From the NCBI GenBank assembly GCA_965243205.1, contig CBDEUK010000002.1, positions 384,001-448,000 of the forward strand: DNA of 64,000 nt. Reading direction: 5' to 3'. The translations under genes were made by a program, and so were the position numbers. Under the pieces are notes generated by a model. It was not told the DNA's origin. It saw nothing but the letters and a program-made list of their open reading frames with translations, and searched no databases. Of this stretch, positions 12,711 through 20,586 are shown piece after piece; position 1 is the first letter of the stretch, and each line of letters opens with the position of its first letter. Origin of the DNA: Gammaproteobacteria bacterium. Lineage in GTDB: Bacteria; Pseudomonadota; Gammaproteobacteria; Eutrophobiales; Eutrophobiaceae.

Positions 12711-13043
12711 TTATTTAATATGATTCATTTTCATACGACGTGGAGTTGCTACAAATTTATCTTCTTTTTGAGTTTCAAATTGTGCCAAATCTACAACTCT
12801 AACGGTTTCAGTGTTACGCGTATAAGGTGGCTTGCCACGGAAATCTACGTTATTCACAACGATTTCTTTTTGGGTTTCAAATTGCGCTAAATCAACGTTT
12901 CTAACAGAATCCTTACTGCGTTGATAAGGTGGTTTGCCAGAAAAATCAGTGGTCCAAACAGTCGTTGTTTGATCTTCCGCACTTACATTAGCGAATAAGC
13001 TCATACCTAAACTGACCATTAATAATTGTGAAAAACGTTTCAT
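12711..13043 (-). CDS. Small exported protein with two internal repeats
   Basis: AGGAGA RBS before ATG 13043; signal peptide ending VSA; two copies of DF(S/R)GKPPYxR...VDLAQFETQKE. Confidence 0.8.
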   Translation of the reverse strand: MKRFSQLLMVSLGMSLFANVSAEDQTTTVWTTDFSGKPPYQRSKDSVRNVDLAQFETQKEIVVNNVDFRGKPPYTRNTETVRVVDLAQFETQKEDKFVATPRRMKMNHIK

Positions 13044-13143
13044 TTCGTTATCTCCTATTGGATGTTTGTGGGATTTCAATATTTTCATTGATAGTAATTT
13101 TAATTTTAATAACGCGCGCTAATGACATAATTTCAGAAAATAT

Positions 13144-13365: not shown

Positions 13366-13884
13366 ATGAAAATATTTCAAAATCTAAGATTACATCGGCT
13401 TAATCTATTACTGATAATTTTTAGCCTGTGTACGATAGTTCAGGCAGAAGAAGTAACGAAAAATATAATCGAGCTTCACCCATCTTCAAGTGGTACATAC
13501 ACTATCTCAGGTCAAATGGCTCCTGCAGTAAAAAGTGAATTTCTACTCGATACTGGAGCGACTATGGTGATGATTAGTAACAAGCTGTTTAAAGAGATCA
13601 GTAAACATCAGAAAACTACATCAACTGGCAAAGTTGCTGCCAGCATGGCAAATGGAAAAGTAAAAACCATTCCTACTTACTCTATACCTTCTTTAGTATT
13701 AGGCAATGGTTGTGAAGTTGGCCCAGTTGAAGTCGCTGTTGTTAGAGGCGCAAGCAGAAATTTAATTGGATTAAATGCTTTATCTAAATTAGGCGCTATG
13801 ACATTGGACATTCAACATGCCACATTATCAACAACAGAATGTCCCAAAACATTATTAACGGCTCAAAGTGTTGTAGTAAATTAG
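13366..13884 (+). CDS. Retropepsin-like (clan AA) aspartyl protease, probably exported
   Basis: FLLDTGAT catalytic motif, MANG, NLIGLNAL; N-terminal signal/TM segment. Confidence 0.85.
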   Translation: MKIFQNLRLHRLNLLLIIFSLCTIVQAEEVTKNIIELHPSSSGTYTISGQMAPAVKSEFLLDTGATMVMISNKLFKEISKHQKTTSTGKVAASMANGKVKTIPTYSIPSLVLGNGCEVGPVEVAVVRGASRNLIGLNALSKLGAMTLDIQHATLSTTECPKTLLTAQSVVVN

Positions 13885-14825
13885 ATAGCGTTTATCAAAT
13901 TGCCAACGTGTTTATGAACTAATTTTTTTAAATTGGCAGAGAATTGTTTAAAGAAATGATTTGATGGTGAACCTTTACGCCAAGCTACCCCATGAATTCT
14001 TTCCATTGACTCACCTTCGATTGTAACAACACGTAACAAACTATCACTGTCTATCTCTGAAGCTATATAGAGTGAGGGTAAAAAAGAGACCCCCATACCC
14101 AATAAAACCATTTGGCGTATACCATCAAGGCTTGTGCCGCCATATTCACGTTTTAAATTCATATCAAGTTTTTCACTTAATAATTTCACTTGTCGATAAT
14201 AATGATGTTGTTCTTCATAGATTAATACATCTGCTCCTTTTAAGGATTGTTTATCAATCGCATTATTATCATTATCTAAATTAGGATGGTCATAACGAGT
14301 AATTAATGACATAGGCTCACGAAATAACGGTACAACATTCAGTTTTTTTTCATTAATTGGTAAAGGACATAAAACTAAATCGTAATGCCCATTAATCAAG
14401 CCATCTTCAAGAATTTTTGGAGTTGCTTCTCGAATATGCAGTTGTAGCTTTGAATATCTAAGATGTATATCGGGTAATATATGTGGTAACAAATATGGTC
14501 CTAATGTAGCTGGTATACCTAATCGAAAACTACCAGAGGTTCCAAGTTCTTCATGGTTTGCTAAATCATGTAATTGATTAACCTGTTCAATGATGTTTTT
14601 TGTTGGCGCTAACATTCGATTGCCTATAGAACTTAAAATTGAACCTGAGCGCCCTCTTTCAAATAAAGTTAATCCTAAACTATTTTCCAACGAAGCTATT
14701 TGAGAAGTTAAAGTAGGTTGAGTAATATTTAATTTCTCTGCAGCTTTTCTAAAGCTACCAGTTTCCGCAATCGCGAGAAAATATTCTAATTGTTTTAATG
14801 TTGGCTTGGTGCGTTCTTCTCTCAA
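13881..14825 (-). CDS. LysR-family regulator, OxyR-like paralogue
   Basis: PTLKQLEYF..SFRKAA..TQPTL HTH; IPATLGPYLLP; GTSLDGIRQMV; the OxyR GHC(L/F)R redox cysteine motif is not present (QHHYYR). Confidence 0.85.
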   Translation of the reverse strand: MREERTKPTLKQLEYFLAIAETGSFRKAAEKLNITQPTLTSQIASLENSLGLTLFERGRSGSILSSIGNRMLAPTKNIIEQVNQLHDLANHEELGTSGSFRLGIPATLGPYLLPHILPDIHLRYSKLQLHIREATPKILEDGLINGHYDLVLCPLPINEKKLNVVPLFREPMSLITRYDHPNLDNDNNAIDKQSLKGADVLIYEEQHHYYRQVKLLSEKLDMNLKREYGGTSLDGIRQMVLLGMGVSFLPSLYIASEIDSDSLLRVVTIEGESMERIHGVAWRKGSPSNHFFKQFSANLKKLVHKHVGNLINAI

Positions 14826-15495: not shown

Positions 15496-16590
15496 TTACC
15501 AAATTAAATTTGTCGGCACTTCAGTAGCATTTTTTTGATGTCTATAATCAGAACTTGCTTTATAGACGGCTTTGCGAATTCGATTGAGCTCACCTATTGG
15601 TCGGTGTTCTGGTAAGGCATTCCATGGTGAAAATGAAAGGTTTTCACAAAAACGTTGTTGCTCAGGCGTATCAAATATTTGTTTTGGAATAATAATTTTA
15701 GCAACCGATATAAAAGGCGAATCGTTTTCATCCCATAATACACTGGGGTCTTCTATCGGCATTCTCTTATTTGGGTCTTGTTTTTGTATCATAAAATTAA
15801 AGCAAGCATCAGAATTTTCTAATTTTTCTGACATTTCATTACGTAAAAAATGTTTGTCCATTTGGTCTGCTTTGATTCTGTTTAATGAGCCGTTACAAGA
15901 TTTTGCTGTAAATTTAATATTATGAGGACCAAGTTTATAAGCAGTGTTACTAAAATACTGATTATCTAAAAGACTTTCTGGAGGATGTTTCAAAGTAGCA
16001 AGCCCATGTTTTAACCCTCGTAGCTTCCAATTGAATGGATTAGGATCAGAAATAAAATATAAAACTTTATTCGAGCTTTCAGTAAATTGATTATAGTCTT
16101 CCATGTTAGCTGTAAAAAATACGGGGCTATCATGCATTAAAAAATCTTGATATTCGGGTGCATTAGCTTTTTGCATAATTCCTTGCTCAAAGATATTGAC
16201 TAATTTTACCGCCATGCCTCGTGCATCTTTATTGTAATCATAATTTCCTTTTACTCTAGAAGCACCATTAGAAAACCGTATCCAGCTTTTATATTCGTTA
16301 TCAGGATATTTTAAAATACCATGTCGTAAATCTTTTGCTATATCTTCATTCACTTTGAAATAAGCTTTAACACAGGCATGCCCTTTTGAATGTGCACCAC
16401 GTGCTATGTAATCGCCTTTATTGTTTTCAACAATGTTCAAAAAATTATCAACCGAACGTTGTATCTGTTCAGTTTCATCATCTCGGAATATTTCTTCAGT
16501 TGTTACCTGAATAGGTTTGTTAAAATGATAGGCTATAAATAATCCTATTAAAAAACAAAATAAAACAGAAAGTTTTAGAAAAGACTTCAT
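15496..16590 (-). CDS. Small catalase-fold haem protein with N-terminal signal/anchor
   Basis: RGAHSKGH (distal His), RFSN, DARGMAVK, FSPW, RKAVY (proximal Tyr); 364 aa, shorter than typical catalases. Confidence 0.8.
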   Translation of the reverse strand: MKSFLKLSVLFCFLIGLFIAYHFNKPIQVTTEEIFRDDETEQIQRSVDNFLNIVENNKGDYIARGAHSKGHACVKAYFKVNEDIAKDLRHGILKYPDNEYKSWIRFSNGASRVKGNYDYNKDARGMAVKLVNIFEQGIMQKANAPEYQDFLMHDSPVFFTANMEDYNQFTESSNKVLYFISDPNPFNWKLRGLKHGLATLKHPPESLLDNQYFSNTAYKLGPHNIKFTAKSCNGSLNRIKADQMDKHFLRNEMSEKLENSDACFNFMIQKQDPNKRMPIEDPSVLWDENDSPFISVAKIIIPKQIFDTPEQQRFCENLSFSPWNALPEHRPIGELNRIRKAVYKASSDYRHQKNATEVPTNLIW

Positions 16591-16592
16591 AC

Positions 16593-18287
16593 TTATAATG
16601 TTTTCATATATTCAATAACTGACCAGATTTCATTATCTGATAGTTTAGGAAGCCCATCTTTCCCTGTACCGTATTCATGACCTGAATTGCTATTTCCTTT
16701 TAAGTTTGTGTCGAAGAAAAATGATCCTTCACGTTTTTCTGAAACATAACCGACGTTAGTAGGATCAAATTCCCATGCGCCTATATAAAACGTTTTTGAT
16801 CGTGCTTCTGCAGGCAACATTAATTCATATAAATTTGGCACAGAACCATTATGTAAATAAGGCGCGGCAGTCCAAATTCCATTTAAAGGTCTGGCTTTAT
16901 AGGCTAACAATGCTTTTTCAGAACTTTCTTGGCCTCTTTCAATGATTTTACCATCCACATATTTAGGTTGACGAAAATCATCTGAATGGCCTAATTTTTT
17001 TGCATCACGTTTAGCTAATAAACTCTGTATGGGCTTATTGGTTAAAACACCTCCCATAATGTTATTCACTATGTAGATAGCAAAATCTTCTGTTTGTAAA
17101 GCTGGCCCAGCTTTGTAAAAACGAGGTTTGCCTGAAAAAATACCACTCTTGCCACGGAGTTTAATGGCGTTTTTAGCCATTAATGGATCGGTGCCAATGT
17201 AATCTAAAGTACTCATGCGTACTTTGATATATCGATCGGGATCATCTCGTTCCATATCCAAATGACAACTAGAGCAATAGGTTTTATAAAGTTCCCTGCC
17301 CTGCTTCGCTTTAGTCTGATCTATTTTAGGAAATATTTCTGGCCATAAAGGTGAATGAAGTTCAGCTACTTTCATTTCAATTTTTCTTAATGAATCAGCC
17401 TGTATAGAAGAGTTATAACCACCATCAAAGAAAAATAGAAATTTAGATGGCTTAGTTTCAACTTGACCAAATACTCCTATTACTTCTCCTATGTTTCTTG
17501 CTAATGCTCCAACACTTGAATTGGATTGTGAACCATTCCATTCTACATAATCATGTTGTGGTGTATCCCATATATAAGGATAACTGGTCGGAGCATCCGC
17601 CATGTTAAAATTATTTTTTTCTTCTGTTAATAACAATCCTTTGTTTAAGATGTTTCCGAAAGCATCTAATCTTGAATAACCATACATTTGATTAGAATGA
17701 TTACGTATATTATGTTGTTTGCGTTCTTCTAGTATTTCTGTGAACTGTTTTTTTAATGTTTCTTGTTTTGTTTTAGAAATATTTGTTCCTAAAATACGTT
17801 TTTCTAATCTAGAATACTTATCATCTGATTTGGCTGTTGCGTCTAAGGCGGATTCTAAATCCATAAGAAACATTGGCAGGTCCATCATTGCTTGCCCGCC
17901 GTCAATATGAATAAATTGATTTTTATATTTAATTTGTTGGGTATGGCAAGCAGCGCAAGTCAACCCTAAATAGTTATCAGCTTTAGTAAAACCAATCGGT
18001 AAATTATCAGGGTTATATTTTGATGGAAGAAAACCATATTTCATCATATTTAATGGATCATGAAATAAAGATTCAGATTCAGCTTGTTCAAGGTTTATAA
18101 AAATTTCATAAGGAATTAATCTTGATCCTTGATCCACTGTATAAAACCATTCTCGATCTGTTTCAGTCCAATTTTGTTCTAGATAAATAATCTTATTTAA
18201 ATCTAATGCAATTTTATCTTGTAATTCATTTGCATGGACAAACGATATTAAAAGTAACAAAATAATAAATGATAAAGTGATTTTCAT
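16593..18287 (-). CDS. Exported di-haem cytochrome c of the RoxA/MauG/CCP superfamily
   Basis: Signal peptide; CAACH and CSSCH; YKARPLNGIWTAAPYLHNGSVPNLYEL; GNSNSGHEYG. Confidence 0.85.
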   Translation of the reverse strand: MKITLSFIILLLLISFVHANELQDKIALDLNKIIYLEQNWTETDREWFYTVDQGSRLIPYEIFINLEQAESESLFHDPLNMMKYGFLPSKYNPDNLPIGFTKADNYLGLTCAACHTQQIKYKNQFIHIDGGQAMMDLPMFLMDLESALDATAKSDDKYSRLEKRILGTNISKTKQETLKKQFTEILEERKQHNIRNHSNQMYGYSRLDAFGNILNKGLLLTEEKNNFNMADAPTSYPYIWDTPQHDYVEWNGSQSNSSVGALARNIGEVIGVFGQVETKPSKFLFFFDGGYNSSIQADSLRKIEMKVAELHSPLWPEIFPKIDQTKAKQGRELYKTYCSSCHLDMERDDPDRYIKVRMSTLDYIGTDPLMAKNAIKLRGKSGIFSGKPRFYKAGPALQTEDFAIYIVNNIMGGVLTNKPIQSLLAKRDAKKLGHSDDFRQPKYVDGKIIERGQESSEKALLAYKARPLNGIWTAAPYLHNGSVPNLYELMLPAEARSKTFYIGAWEFDPTNVGYVSEKREGSFFFDTNLKGNSNSGHEYGTGKDGLPKLSDNEIWSVIEYMKTL

Positions 18288-18294
18288 GTTTCTA

Positions 18295-19692
18295 TTAATC
18301 TCTTATTAATAATGCATTTAATAAGTTATCTTGAAAATTAATGTTCCCAGTTAAGCCGCCATGTTCTTCACATAATAAAATAGCGTGATCCAATGGAAAG
18401 AATGAATATTTATGTCTGGGCACACTCGGATCTAATACATTTCGTGCTAATAGAGAAGCTTTAGTTACTTGTCCATCGCCTGGTTCCATTAAAATAGCTT
18501 CGTAATCAATGCCATCTATAGGGTTTGTAATTTCTTCAGGATACATTCGTATTAATGATTTATCTTCAATATCCTCTACAACAATTCTCGAAGGTGTTAA
18601 ATGACAATCACCACCAAATACTACAAGTAAAGGATGTTCTTCAGGTAATGGAACTGTTAAAGACCAAACAAACCGTCTTGCGCGTTCAATTCTTTTTTCA
18701 AAAAATCTCTCTAATGTGTTTATGTATTTATCAGCTTCTTCTTCAACCTCAAACCGTTGTTTGATGCGTTGTCTTACTTCAGGATCAAATATTGACCATT
18801 TAAACGCGCGCCAAATTCTGACACTAAAAAGATCTCTGTCCAAAGGCTTGCCAGATGTAGTAACTATCCAATCATTTAGAGGGTGTGGAAGTAATTGATA
18901 CAGACTTGGCATCGTAGCCATAACTTCGGTTGGTATATCATTAACCCCCAATGTAATGCCATCGATTAAAGCATTCAGCATTCGAACAGAACCTAAGTTA
19001 GGTGTTCCTAATAAGATGACGCGGCGTACTCGCTCACCACCATACATATTTACCGGAAATTCATTGTCATCTAAAACATCGAGTTTGCCGTAACGCATAT
19101 AATAACGGGCAACCAGTCCTCCCATACTATGTGCCACGATATCAACTTTTAAATTAGGATCACCATAATCTAATTTTATTTGTTCTATAAAGTCAGCCAG
19201 TTTTTGAGCGGTTTTGACATTATCTTGTCGCCAGTCATATAAAAAAACGTAATAGTTTTTTCTTTTTGGATCTGCTTTATTGCCAATTGATGCCTCTTGA
19301 TAACCACCATAATCCTCTAAAGTTTTAATAATGTTGCCGTAAAAATCTTTACCAACTAACTCATCTGCCAATGCGTATTCTTCATAAGGGCTTTCTATGA
19401 CTTCTAAAGTCATTGGATCTATGTCCAGAGCCAATTGTTCATAATCCCCAAATAATAATTTACTAAGAGAACCGAACCACACTTCTTTTTTTGTTTCTTT
19501 ATCACGAAGACGACTACCTAGAACTCCATGTAAAAAAATAACTGGAGGTTGATCATCCACCATACTGCTTTGAGAAAATAATCGTTTTAGATCAGGTTTA
19601 GGTTCATTTGAGCATGAAATTAAAACGATACAAATGATGAAAAGGCTAACGATAGTAAAAAAAATATGTGAATTTTTGCGGTTTATAATCAT
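18295..19692 (-). CDS. Lipoprotein alpha/beta hydrolase (lipase/LCAT-phospholipase-like)
   Basis: Lipobox VLISC; PVIFLHGVLGS, YDWR, AHSMGG nucleophile elbow, LGTPNLGS, GDGQV, EEHGGL. Confidence 0.85.
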   Translation of the reverse strand: MIINRKNSHIFFTIVSLFIICIVLISCSNEPKPDLKRLFSQSSMVDDQPPVIFLHGVLGSRLRDKETKKEVWFGSLSKLLFGDYEQLALDIDPMTLEVIESPYEEYALADELVGKDFYGNIIKTLEDYGGYQEASIGNKADPKRKNYYVFLYDWRQDNVKTAQKLADFIEQIKLDYGDPNLKVDIVAHSMGGLVARYYMRYGKLDVLDDNEFPVNMYGGERVRRVILLGTPNLGSVRMLNALIDGITLGVNDIPTEVMATMPSLYQLLPHPLNDWIVTTSGKPLDRDLFSVRIWRAFKWSIFDPEVRQRIKQRFEVEEEADKYINTLERFFEKRIERARRFVWSLTVPLPEEHPLLVVFGGDCHLTPSRIVVEDIEDKSLIRMYPEEITNPIDGIDYEAILMEPGDGQVTKASLLARNVLDPSVPRHKYSFFPLDHAILLCEEHGGLTGNINFQDNLLNALLIRD

Positions 19693-19782
19693 TTTTAGTC
19701 CCAGATTACATCTACATTCTCTATATTGGACAAGATTAAGGAAAAAAAGCTATTCCGCTTTTATTTTGACTATAATCTTAAT

Positions 19783-20586
19783 GTGAACAAAAGAAAATTA
19801 CGATTTAGATATATTTTTAACATTGTAGGATTATTAATCATAATAATGCCTACTACGTTGTCTGCTACGCCTTATCGATATCATCATGATCGATATTATT
19901 ATGGTTATAACCATTGCTGTAGCTACCATGGTCATTATGGACCAAGGGTAAGTGTTGGAGCCGGTTATCGTTCTCGCAATAATACGCTAGGTTATATTTT
20001 TTTAGGTTTATTAGGGCTTTATGTGATACATGAAATATTTGATGATGATGGATATGAACGTCATTCCTATCCTGAACGTGTTAATAATACCCCATCTCAA
20101 CGCGTTATTATTCAGCCGAAACAAGTTAACTACTATGGATCAGCCGATATTAATCAATACTATTTTGGACAAAATGAAGGATGGGAGGCGCTGGATAATC
20201 AGAATTATTTAAAGGCCATGCGGATCTTTGCTATTCAATCACAACAAAATCTAAGTTCTGGGGTTCCGAAGATAGGATTCGCTCTAGCAACAGCGGCTAA
20301 TGGAGAATTAGAACGTGGTATTTGGTCTATGCAACGAGCCTTAAAACAAGATCCTAATGCTTTAGAAAAAATCAGAGCTCATAATCATTCTAAGCAATTA
20401 TTAAATCAAATCCATTTTAGTTATGAACAGAGTGCTCAATTAGATAATCAGCAATCTCATTTCATGATGGCAGCTATTTCTTATATGAATAACGAATTTA
20501 TGATGGCTGCAGAAGAAATTTCATTAGGCGGTAATGACCTTAGTACAAATAAATTAGCGACTATTATAGATTCTAAAATTAATTGA
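19783..20586 (+). CDS. Hypothetical exported/membrane protein with Tyr/His-rich N-region and TPR-like C-domain
   Basis: Track ORF 19726-20586; signal-like segment if started at GTG 19783; internal hydrophobic helix; helical repeat-like C-half. Confidence 0.6.
   Translation: MNKRKLRFRYIFNIVGLLIIIMPTTLSATPYRYHHDRYYYGYNHCCSYHGHYGPRVSVGAGYRSRNNTLGYIFLGLLGLYVIHEIFDDDGYERHSYPERVNNTPSQRVIIQPKQVNYYGSADINQYYFGQNEGWEALDNQNYLKAMRIFAIQSQQNLSSGVPKIGFALATAANGELERGIWSMQRALKQDPNALEKIRAHNHSKQLLNQIHFSYEQSAQLDNQQSHFMMAAISYMNNEFMMAAEEISLGGNDLSTNKLATIIDSKIN

Follow-up and report, generated by a model that had tools for sequence, protein, structure and literature searches.

The 64,000-nucleotide stretch of DNA analysed here (the window; positions 384,001 to 448,000 of contig CBDEUK010000002.1, from a gammaproteobacterium of the family Eutrophobiaceae) carries on its minus strand three genes encoding, in the order of transcription, an LCAT-like alpha/beta hydrolase of 465 amino acids (18295..19692), a di-haem cytochrome c of family NF040606 with a RoxA-like fold and 564 amino acids, likely a fatty-acid dioxygenase (16593..18287), and a small catalase-fold haem protein of 364 amino acids with an N-terminal hydrophobic helix (15496..16590). 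This trio had been proposed as a candidate lipid-oxidation operon from the letters of the DNA (the sequence-only reading), and our analysis confirmed the coordinates, the common strand and the gaps of only 7 nt between the hydrolase and di-haem genes and 2 nt between the di-haem and catalase-fold genes, as well as the presence of the AHSMGG, two CxxCH, PYLHNGSVP and catalase His/Tyr motifs, the last being His67 and Tyr343. The guanine-cytosine content of the trio (33-34%) is the same as that of its surroundings. Each of the three proteins begins with a hydrophobic stretch (15-residue hydropathy peaks of 3.2, 3.0 and 2.6), export being judged from hydropathy and by eye. The claim that all three carry export signals agrees with these stretches and with the lipobox of the hydrolase (LISC, Cys27). 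This lipobox is genuine in the window copy but is not a feature of the family: 8 of 49 aligned lipases have a lipobox-like motif, and the others have what appear to be N-terminal, uncleaved membrane anchors.

The arrangement of the trio is far beyond chance. A scan with a single protein as query found no match; the alignment-based scans supplied 80 GTDB loci (the best of 108) and 80 metagenome loci (the best of 88), together the 160 loci. Among the best 80 GTDB loci the lipase gene was present in 70 and the catalase gene in 71, and at the 58 species-level loci of this set with at least 2 kb upstream and at least 3 kb downstream both partners were found in 54, the lipase only in two and the catalase only in two. 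The metagenome loci with the same flanks (31 of the best 80) had both partners in 22 cases, the lipase only in three and neither in six, the latter being distant relatives with 32-41% identity. Carriers of the trio include Thiotrichaceae, Methylophaga/Piscirickettsiaceae, Methylophilaceae and other Gammaproteobacteria, and the outer neighbours of the three genes differ between these lineages. Within 126 genomes of the source family the three genes were detected in 51, 58 and 54 genomes, all three in 47, none in 64 and a partial set in 15, many of which have the genes at contig ends or are incomplete assemblies; in one genome (G100, locus L027) the catalase gene is split over two reading frames. 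Co-occurrence in other genomes had been set beforehand as a test of the lipid-oxidation proposal, and the trio indeed recurs widely, being found in many aquatic bacteria. In 45 of the 160 loci, mostly from Methylophaga and Methylophilaceae, an acyltransferase-3 gene (PF01757; e.g. L065:7662-8942) is located between the di-haem and catalase genes, and it is absent from the other 115, including the window's locus.

The di-haem protein scored 582 bits against NF040606 (cut-off 150), which carries the family name 'di-heme-cytochrome C peroxidase'; the ESM Atlas gave the same family name and nothing more, and the source genome contains one NF040606 match over the cut-off. Its haem 1 motif CAACH (residues 111-115; 17943..17957, on the minus strand like all features of the trio) has Cys111, Cys114 and His115 invariant in 48 of 48 rows of the trio clade and 35 of 35 rows of the wider family; the haem 2 motif CSSCH (residues 338-342; 17262..17276) likewise has invariant Cys338, Cys341 and His342, and a MauG-type motif PYLHNGSVP (PF21419) is found at residues 476-484 (16836..16862). 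When the structural model (predicted local distance difference test score, pLDDT, 75.8; predicted template modelling score 0.80; pLDDT below 50 at residues 234-265) was compared with known structures by Foldseek, the sole match at E <= 0.001 was RoxA (4b2n; template modelling score, TM, 0.41; 16% identity), and MauG gave an E value of 0.84. A profile of the 35 wider family rows matched RoxA with an E value of 8.6e-34, placing Trp250 on RoxA Trp302, Glu249 on Phe301 and His537 on His641. The second haem of canonical cytochrome c peroxidases (CcP) and MauG has His/Met or His/Tyr ligands. His537 (16677..16679), which all 48 clade rows and all 35 wider family rows share, aligns with RoxA His641; as the latter is the distal haem 2 ligand, bis-His coordination of this haem is predicted, unlike that in CcP or MauG. 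We therefore rejected a canonical CcP or MauG identity, in agreement with the sequence-only reading, on the basis of His537, the lack of a CCP_MauG Pfam match at E <= 0.01 and a length of 564 amino acids, canonical bacterial CcP being proteins of 35-40 kDa (PMC4496055). The Glu249-Trp250 pair (17538..17543) occupies the positions of RoxA Phe301 and of the inter-haem bridge Trp302, residues whose roles in RoxA have been described (PMC4496055). Trp250 is kept in 48 of 48 clade rows and is Trp in 26 and Tyr in 9 of the 35 wider family rows; in the Phe301 column all 48 clade rows have Glu249, and 28 of the 35 wider family rows have Gln. The distal pocket of the rubber oxygenases is hydrophobic and includes Phe301 and Phe317; Phe273 (Phe in 41 and Tyr in 7 of 48 rows) may correspond to Phe317, at a place where the alignment is gapped. 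Membership in RoxA/RoxB was also rejected, given scores of 47.9, 60.5 and 64.1 bits against the NCBIfam models of RoxA, RoxB and RoxC, far under their equivalog cut-offs of 1000, 900 and 900, respectively.

The RoxA-like fold proposed for this enzyme thus stands, but its nearest characterised relatives are PA2077 and PA2078 of Pseudomonas aeruginosa and not RoxA/RoxB. Both are RoxA-like di-haem proteins, PA2077 being an oleate 10S-dioxygenase and PA2078 a diol synthase; RoxA F301 is replaced by Gln in both (F301Q), a change that agrees with the Gln of 28 of the 35 wider family rows and so ties the two to NF040606, the inter-haem Trp (W251) is kept in PA2077 and is Ser in PA2078, and the distal His of haem 2 is H611 and H603, respectively (PMC4496055). 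Peptides derived from the mutagenesis primers of PA2077 scored 14.4 bits against the haem-1 profile and 11.8 bits against the haem-2 profile of the NF040606 family, values that fall inside the family's leave-one-out range and that none of 39 unrelated CxxCH windows reached. For the same protein, Table 1 of PMC4496055 gives CAGCH/CAACH, yet in the primers of its S2 Table the mutated His is preceded by CSMC and CSSC. In addition, a plasmid collection contained NF040606 proteins with 33-35% identity to that of the window from Ruegeria pomeroyi, Methylobacterium radiotolerans and Rhizobium leguminosarum, species that appear in the published trees of PA2077/PA2078 homologues (PMC6377657, supplement 3), the two being tied by species name and not by accession. 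Taken together, the haem-flanking peptides, the bridging Trp and the second-haem His indicate that the di-haem protein fits PA2077, albeit indirectly. Since PA2077 is a fatty-acid dioxygenase, a di-haem enzyme in place of the lipoxygenase, as suggested in the sequence-only reading, is already known.

The catalase-fold protein gave a weak PF00199 match (E 4.8e-11; 43 bits, residues 64-172 only) and a structural model with a pLDDT of 94.3. The VIA-align comparison of this model placed coral allene oxide synthase (1u5u) at the top (Z 30.2; root mean square deviation 2.9; 302 aligned residues), followed by a Mycobacterium avium 33-kDa protein (MAP-2744c-type, 3e4y; Z 28.2) and by true catalases with Z of 26.7 or less; in Foldseek the M. 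avium protein ranked first. Arg64, His67 (distal), Arg105, Ser107, Arg339, Tyr343 (proximal) and Arg350 are invariant, the haem-binding Arg, His67 and Tyr343 being present in 71 of 71 rows. The column of the distal Asn (153), which was set by alignment to the catalase GNNTP motif, contains His in 51, Ala in 11, Thr in 7, Leu in 1 and Val in 1 of the 71 rows, and the next column Asn in 43 and Asp in 24. In coral allene oxide synthase the distal residues are Thr66, His67 and Asn137 (PMC5617202). As the protein has neither the distal Asn nor a Thr in front of the distal His, the likeness to this enzyme claimed earlier applies to the fold, and rearrangement to an allene oxide is not supported by the sequence. 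Monofunctional catalases have about 480-500 amino acids, with an N-terminal arm and a helical domain, and a distal His together with an Asn. Such an identity was rejected as well, the protein having 364 residues including a membrane helix, about 120 fewer than such an enzyme, and no distal Asn; judged by its residues, it is typical neither of catalases nor of allene oxide synthases. A quick tree, built from 15 of the 71 trio rows together with 16 of the 42 long catalase relatives (two SrpA-type loci without a profile match were dropped), united the trio proteins in one branch (98), sister to pseudomonad-type neighbours (92) and separate from three true catalases; it does not settle the placement of this branch relative to the lipoxygenase- and cyclooxygenase-fused domains. 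A complex prediction for the di-haem and catalase-fold proteins returned 'no answer' with a score of 0.00 and was counted neither way.

The hydrolase has LCAT (PF02450) as its best Pfam match (E 1.7e-11) and a nucleophile elbow AHSMGG at residues 187-192. Its predicted triad Ser189, Asp406 and His444 is invariant in 49 of 49 aligned relatives, suggesting that it is likely an active serine hydrolase. In three other loci a paralogous LCAT-like lipoprotein (about 29% identity) adjoins a fatty-acid hydroxylase/desaturase gene (L031:1048-3627, L307:3423-5995 and L308:2818-5397), whose assignment to PF04116 rests on the L031 copy.

The neighbourhood and fusion survey, which the sequence-only reading had asked for, indicated which parts of the trio belong most closely together. 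Among 120 listed (of 173) long relatives of the di-haem protein, 38 are fusions with a catalase domain, in both orders, with Thr-His in 18, Gln-His in 11, Val-His in 8 and one unmatched at the distal position; P0255, one of the Thr-His fusions, gave no sequence match to allene oxide synthase. A DUF2235/Tle1-type phospholipase-like domain is fused in 12 of the same 120, and 42 long catalase relatives comprise fusions to lipoxygenase (2), a cyclooxygenase-like haem peroxidase (6) and patatin (3). Of 401 genomes sampled across the phylum, 28 matched; among the 26 loci taken from them, 12 had the catalase gene close by, which in one large gammaproteobacterial family (f23) held for 9 of 9. The plasmid pNGR234a has the order catalase, hypothetical, di-haem, patatin, and other plasmid copies of the di-haem gene occur without a catalase gene. 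These fusions and the changing hydrolases (patatin, DUF2235, LCAT-like) suggest that the two haem proteins are the conserved core, and that the lipase is an exchangeable partner, unrelated phospholipases having been recruited more than once. The lipase, claimed earlier as a pathway member, is thus conserved beside the haem pair within the clade but does not belong to its core.

Variants of these neighbourhoods were also seen. On a Paracoccus yeei plasmid (L285:4788-9264), genes named 'catalase family' and 'peroxidase family' come after a second RoxA-like subtype below the NF040606 cut-off; at L237 and L251, and in fragmented form at L203, this subtype is a neighbour of the di-haem gene. In two loci (L255:4676-8110 and L201:4881-9336) the NF040606 gene is paired with a cytochrome P450 and not with a catalase-fold gene, a pairing that resembles fungal dioxygenase-P450 fusions. 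Helix-turn-helix regulators of about 350-390 amino acids, possible product sensors, adjoin the di-haem gene on four alphaproteobacterial plasmids (L200, L201, L202 and L285), and a DUF547 and a radical S-adenosylmethionine gene follow the catalase gene in 5-6 loci (L027, L028, L031, L107, L108 and L119).

The explanation that we consider probable is that the trio constitutes an envelope fatty-acid oxygenation pathway, in which a lipase, a fatty-acid dioxygenase and a hydroperoxide-converting enzyme would act in succession; gene anatomy, conservation, fusions, folds and residue equivalences were observed, and from these we infer every catalytic step. An unsaturated fatty acid would first be released from phospholipid by the anchored hydrolase; haem 1 of the di-haem protein, connected to haem 2 through Trp250, would then be the site of O2 addition, yielding an allylic hydroperoxide as in PA2077. 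The anchored catalase-fold protein would then consume the toxic hydroperoxide and thereby stand in for PA2078: in P. aeruginosa, PA2077 is toxic when alone and PA2078 relieves the toxicity (PMC4496055). For this last step, since the protein has neither the Thr nor the Asn of allene oxide synthase, we somewhat favour a reduction, giving a hydroxy acid similar to 10-hydroxyoctadecenoic acid (10-HOME), over a reaction of the allene-oxide or lyase type. A role of the product as a signal, a defence compound or an envelope lipid is more likely than one as food. The source genome (100% completeness) contains no match to PF00725, the FadB-type 3-hydroxyacyl-CoA dehydrogenase that was found in 7 of 14 control genomes; classical beta-oxidation therefore appears to be absent and the trio is unlikely to serve feeding. 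The same genome encodes two full KatG, so that H2O2 removal is covered by other genes and H2O2 housekeeping does not explain the trio, and in addition two desaturase-family genes and one GspD type II secretin. Three alcohol dehydrogenases of the pyrroloquinoline quinone-dependent methanol/ethanol family scored over the cut-off. With these and without a PF00725 match, the genome resembles that of a methylotroph, and many of the other trio carriers appear to be methylotrophs too.

Several observations weigh against this explanation. The trio clade has Glu249 in every one of the 48 rows at a position where PA2077, PA2078 and most of the family have Gln, and a distal Glu is typical of peroxidases such as CcP and MauG. 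The full sequences of PA2077/PA2078 were not found in the 14 control genomes, in the plasmid collection or with the pattern PYFHNGSVP in sets of 34 and 401 genomes (0 of 401), PF21419 having been searched in one 21-genome genus as well, and orthology consequently rests on short peptides and species names. Outside the clade, none of the 26 phylum-sample loci has the trio lipase and 14 also lack the catalase gene. The residue before the distal His is Ala in 89, Val in 23 and Ser in 1 of 113 neighbours and never Thr. DyP-type peroxidases are the commonest fusion partner of the long catalase relatives (15 of 42, by Pfam or source name), and alpha-amylase (10) and reprolysin-like (9) domains occur among the 120 listed long di-haem relatives, indicating that these domains are not exclusive to lipids. 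One genome (G137, L304:2043-5984) keeps the lipase, acyltransferase and catalase genes with no di-haem gene between them, and in another (G010) the lipase gene lies 90 kb away. Moreover, the surveyed genomes are kin and the two collections overlap, so that the counts are not independent.

Some of these points would suit a repair of lipid peroxides, in which the lipase excises oxidised acyl chains from the membrane and organic hydroperoxides are reduced by both haem proteins together, with the di-haem protein serving as a peroxidase or as an electron donor and no O2 being inserted. The invariant Glu249 at the distal position of haem 1, the family name of NF040606 and the DyP fusions all agree with such a role, as does the second-best fold, that of the M. 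avium 33-kDa catalase-related protein, which reportedly has peroxidase activity. However, RoxA and PA2077, the characterised relatives that share the fold of the di-haem protein, act as dioxygenases, hydroperoxide-making lipoxygenase and cyclooxygenase-like domains also occur as fusion partners of the catalase domain, and no gene for the supply of reductant accompanies the trio; we regard repair as unlikely, if the most serious of the alternatives. Less likely again is a tailoring of envelope lipids, which has the oxygenation step in common with the fatty-acid oxygenation pathway and differs in the role of the hydrolase and in the end product: the haem pair would hydroxylate acyl chains, and the LCAT-like enzyme or the acyltransferase-3 would esterify the hydroxyl to give an O-acylated structural lipid and no released oxylipin. 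LCAT as best Pfam match of the hydrolase, the acyltransferase inserted in 45 of 160 loci, the paralogous lipase beside a fatty-acid hydroxylase-family gene (L031, L307 and L308), the membrane anchors of lipase and catalase and the lack of a conserved regulator (LysR in 2 of 160 loci) are in line with this proposal, but the acyltransferase is missing from the other 115 loci including that of the window, and elsewhere the partner is patatin or DUF2235, both of them hydrolases.

Two further alternatives are very improbable. An ordinary H2O2 defence by a cytochrome c peroxidase and a catalase, with the lipase as a chance neighbour, could be argued from the peroxide-handling superfamilies to which both haem proteins belong and from an OxyR-like LysR gene two genes downstream; it conflicts with the size of the di-haem protein compared to canonical CcP, the lack of a CcP/MauG Pfam match, the His at the distal position of haem 2 and a catalase-fold protein without the distal Asn and about 120 residues, and also with the two KatG and with a lipase that is conserved alongside where the LysR gene is not. 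Carriers of the trio include Methylophaga and Methylophilaceae, which are restricted methylotrophs. Together with the absence of a FadB-type dehydrogenase from the complete genome, the polar residue at Phe301 and scores of 48-64 bits against models requiring 900-1000, these hosts speak against cleavage of rubber or polyisoprenoids for growth as by RoxA/RoxB, which, despite RoxA being the closest solved structure, we consider the least credible of all. The earlier lipid-oxidation proposal withstood two of the refuting outcomes named for it, since the genes recur together in many genomes and the di-haem protein is no ordinary cytochrome c peroxidase; overall it is partly supported, and the trio itself is real, conserved and likely an undescribed route for freeing, oxygenating and converting fatty acids outside the cytoplasm.

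Genes next to the trio were not counted as members of the unit. A uracil-DNA glycosylase (UDG) gene lies 14 nt further downstream in the same orientation, and the transcript may thus extend beyond the trio; UDG accompanies the trio in only 25 of the 160 loci. Downstream of UDG lies the OxyR-like LysR gene (window 13881-14825, minus strand; 167 bits against a cut-off of 329); a LysR gene accompanies the trio in 2 of 160 loci, and no regulator is conserved. A divergent 286-amino-acid open reading frame on the plus strand (19726-20586), with a His/Tyr-rich N-terminal part and without a family match, stands beside the trio in 0 of 160 loci. Besides these three, uvrC, pgsA and an epoxide-hydrolase-like gene confined to one sub-clade (15 loci) were rejected. 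On the minus strand at 12711-13088, a 125-amino-acid exported-looking open reading frame contains two copies of a unit of about 35 residues (DFxGKPPY ... VDLAQFETQKE) and gave no Pfam and no NCBIfam match. A promoter and terminator scan returned 32 sites, fewer than in shuffled sequences (49.9).

Synthesis of oxylipins by di-haem enzymes has been characterised only in P. aeruginosa, and the authors of that work asked whether other bacteria make oxylipins likewise (PMC6377657); the trio names likely enzymes in dozens of species. If our explanation is correct, it would assign a function to a subfamily of catalase-fold proteins whose active-site pattern is new, and would offer a candidate enzyme type for the conversion of the 10-hydroperoxide to 10-HOME, a step called undefined in the paper on the oleate-diol synthase (ODS) system (bioRxiv 10.1101/2021.09.08.459554). 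We also entertain, tentatively and with less than even confidence, the broader idea that bacteria have, in the di-haem/mini-catalase pair, a widespread equivalent of the tandem of lipoxygenase and allene oxide synthase. Built from a c-type di-haem dioxygenase, this pair would recruit whichever phospholipase is available, and at the envelope of methylotrophs, pseudomonads and rhizobia it would make oxylipins or O-acylated hydroxy lipids of a class so far unseen.

The sequence-only reading knew of no characterised pathway with this trio, and likewise no published description of the trio or of the haem pair was found in the literature searched, outside of which lie most subscription journals and the figure supplements (alignments) of PMC4496055. 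Among the closest known systems is that of the P. aeruginosa 10S-dioxygenase PA2077 (OdsA) and 7,10-diol synthase PA2078 (OdsB) of the 'FadCcp' subfamily, which underlie ODS quorum sensing (PMC4496055; PMC6377657; bioRxiv 10.1101/2021.09.08.459554). Similar to this pair, the trio has an exported di-haem protein with two CxxCH, PYxHNGSVP, a bridging Trp and similar haem-flanking peptides, a His ligand 58 residues past the motif His (553 to 611 in PA2077; 479 to 537 here) and a second enzyme encoded alongside. In contrast, this second enzyme has a catalase fold instead of being a di-haem paralogue, the unit includes a lipase, the di-haem protein has 564 instead of 634 amino acids and Glu instead of Gln at the RoxA-F301 position, and neither tandem dioxygenase/diol-synthase paralogues nor a conserved LysR receptor are present. 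A comparable coupling, by fusion or adjacency, of a fatty-acid dioxygenase, a role predicted here, to a small catalase-fold haem protein is known from the cAOS-LOX and cHPL-LOX tandems of corals (PDB 1u5u and 3dy5; PMC5617202) and from the 10S-dioxygenase and catalase-related lyase of Nostoc punctiforme (as cited in PMC9579011), although the dioxygenase of the trio is a c-type di-haem protein and not a lipoxygenase or cyclooxygenase-like enzyme. Coral allene oxide synthase is the best structural match and shares the compact catalase fold, the distal His and the proximal Tyr, whereas the equivalents of its Thr66 and Asn137 are here Ala and His in an exported, membrane-anchored protein with 15% identity. 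The 33-kDa protein of M. avium subsp. paratuberculosis (3e4w/3e4y) has a similarly small catalase fold (Z 28.2) and also lacks the distal Asn (Ser in the profile alignment), but is only 20% identical, and the window protein is tied to a di-haem enzyme and a lipase. With RoxA/RoxB (4b2n) the di-haem protein has the fold family and the equivalents of Trp302, His517 and His641 in common, yet it differs in scores far under the family cut-offs, low similarity (16% identity; TM 0.41), a polar residue at the Phe301 position of the distal pocket and the lack of a catabolic context. By these comparisons the trio would resemble in its working both the ODS pair and the dioxygenase and catalase-related tandems of corals and Nostoc, and is a member of neither.

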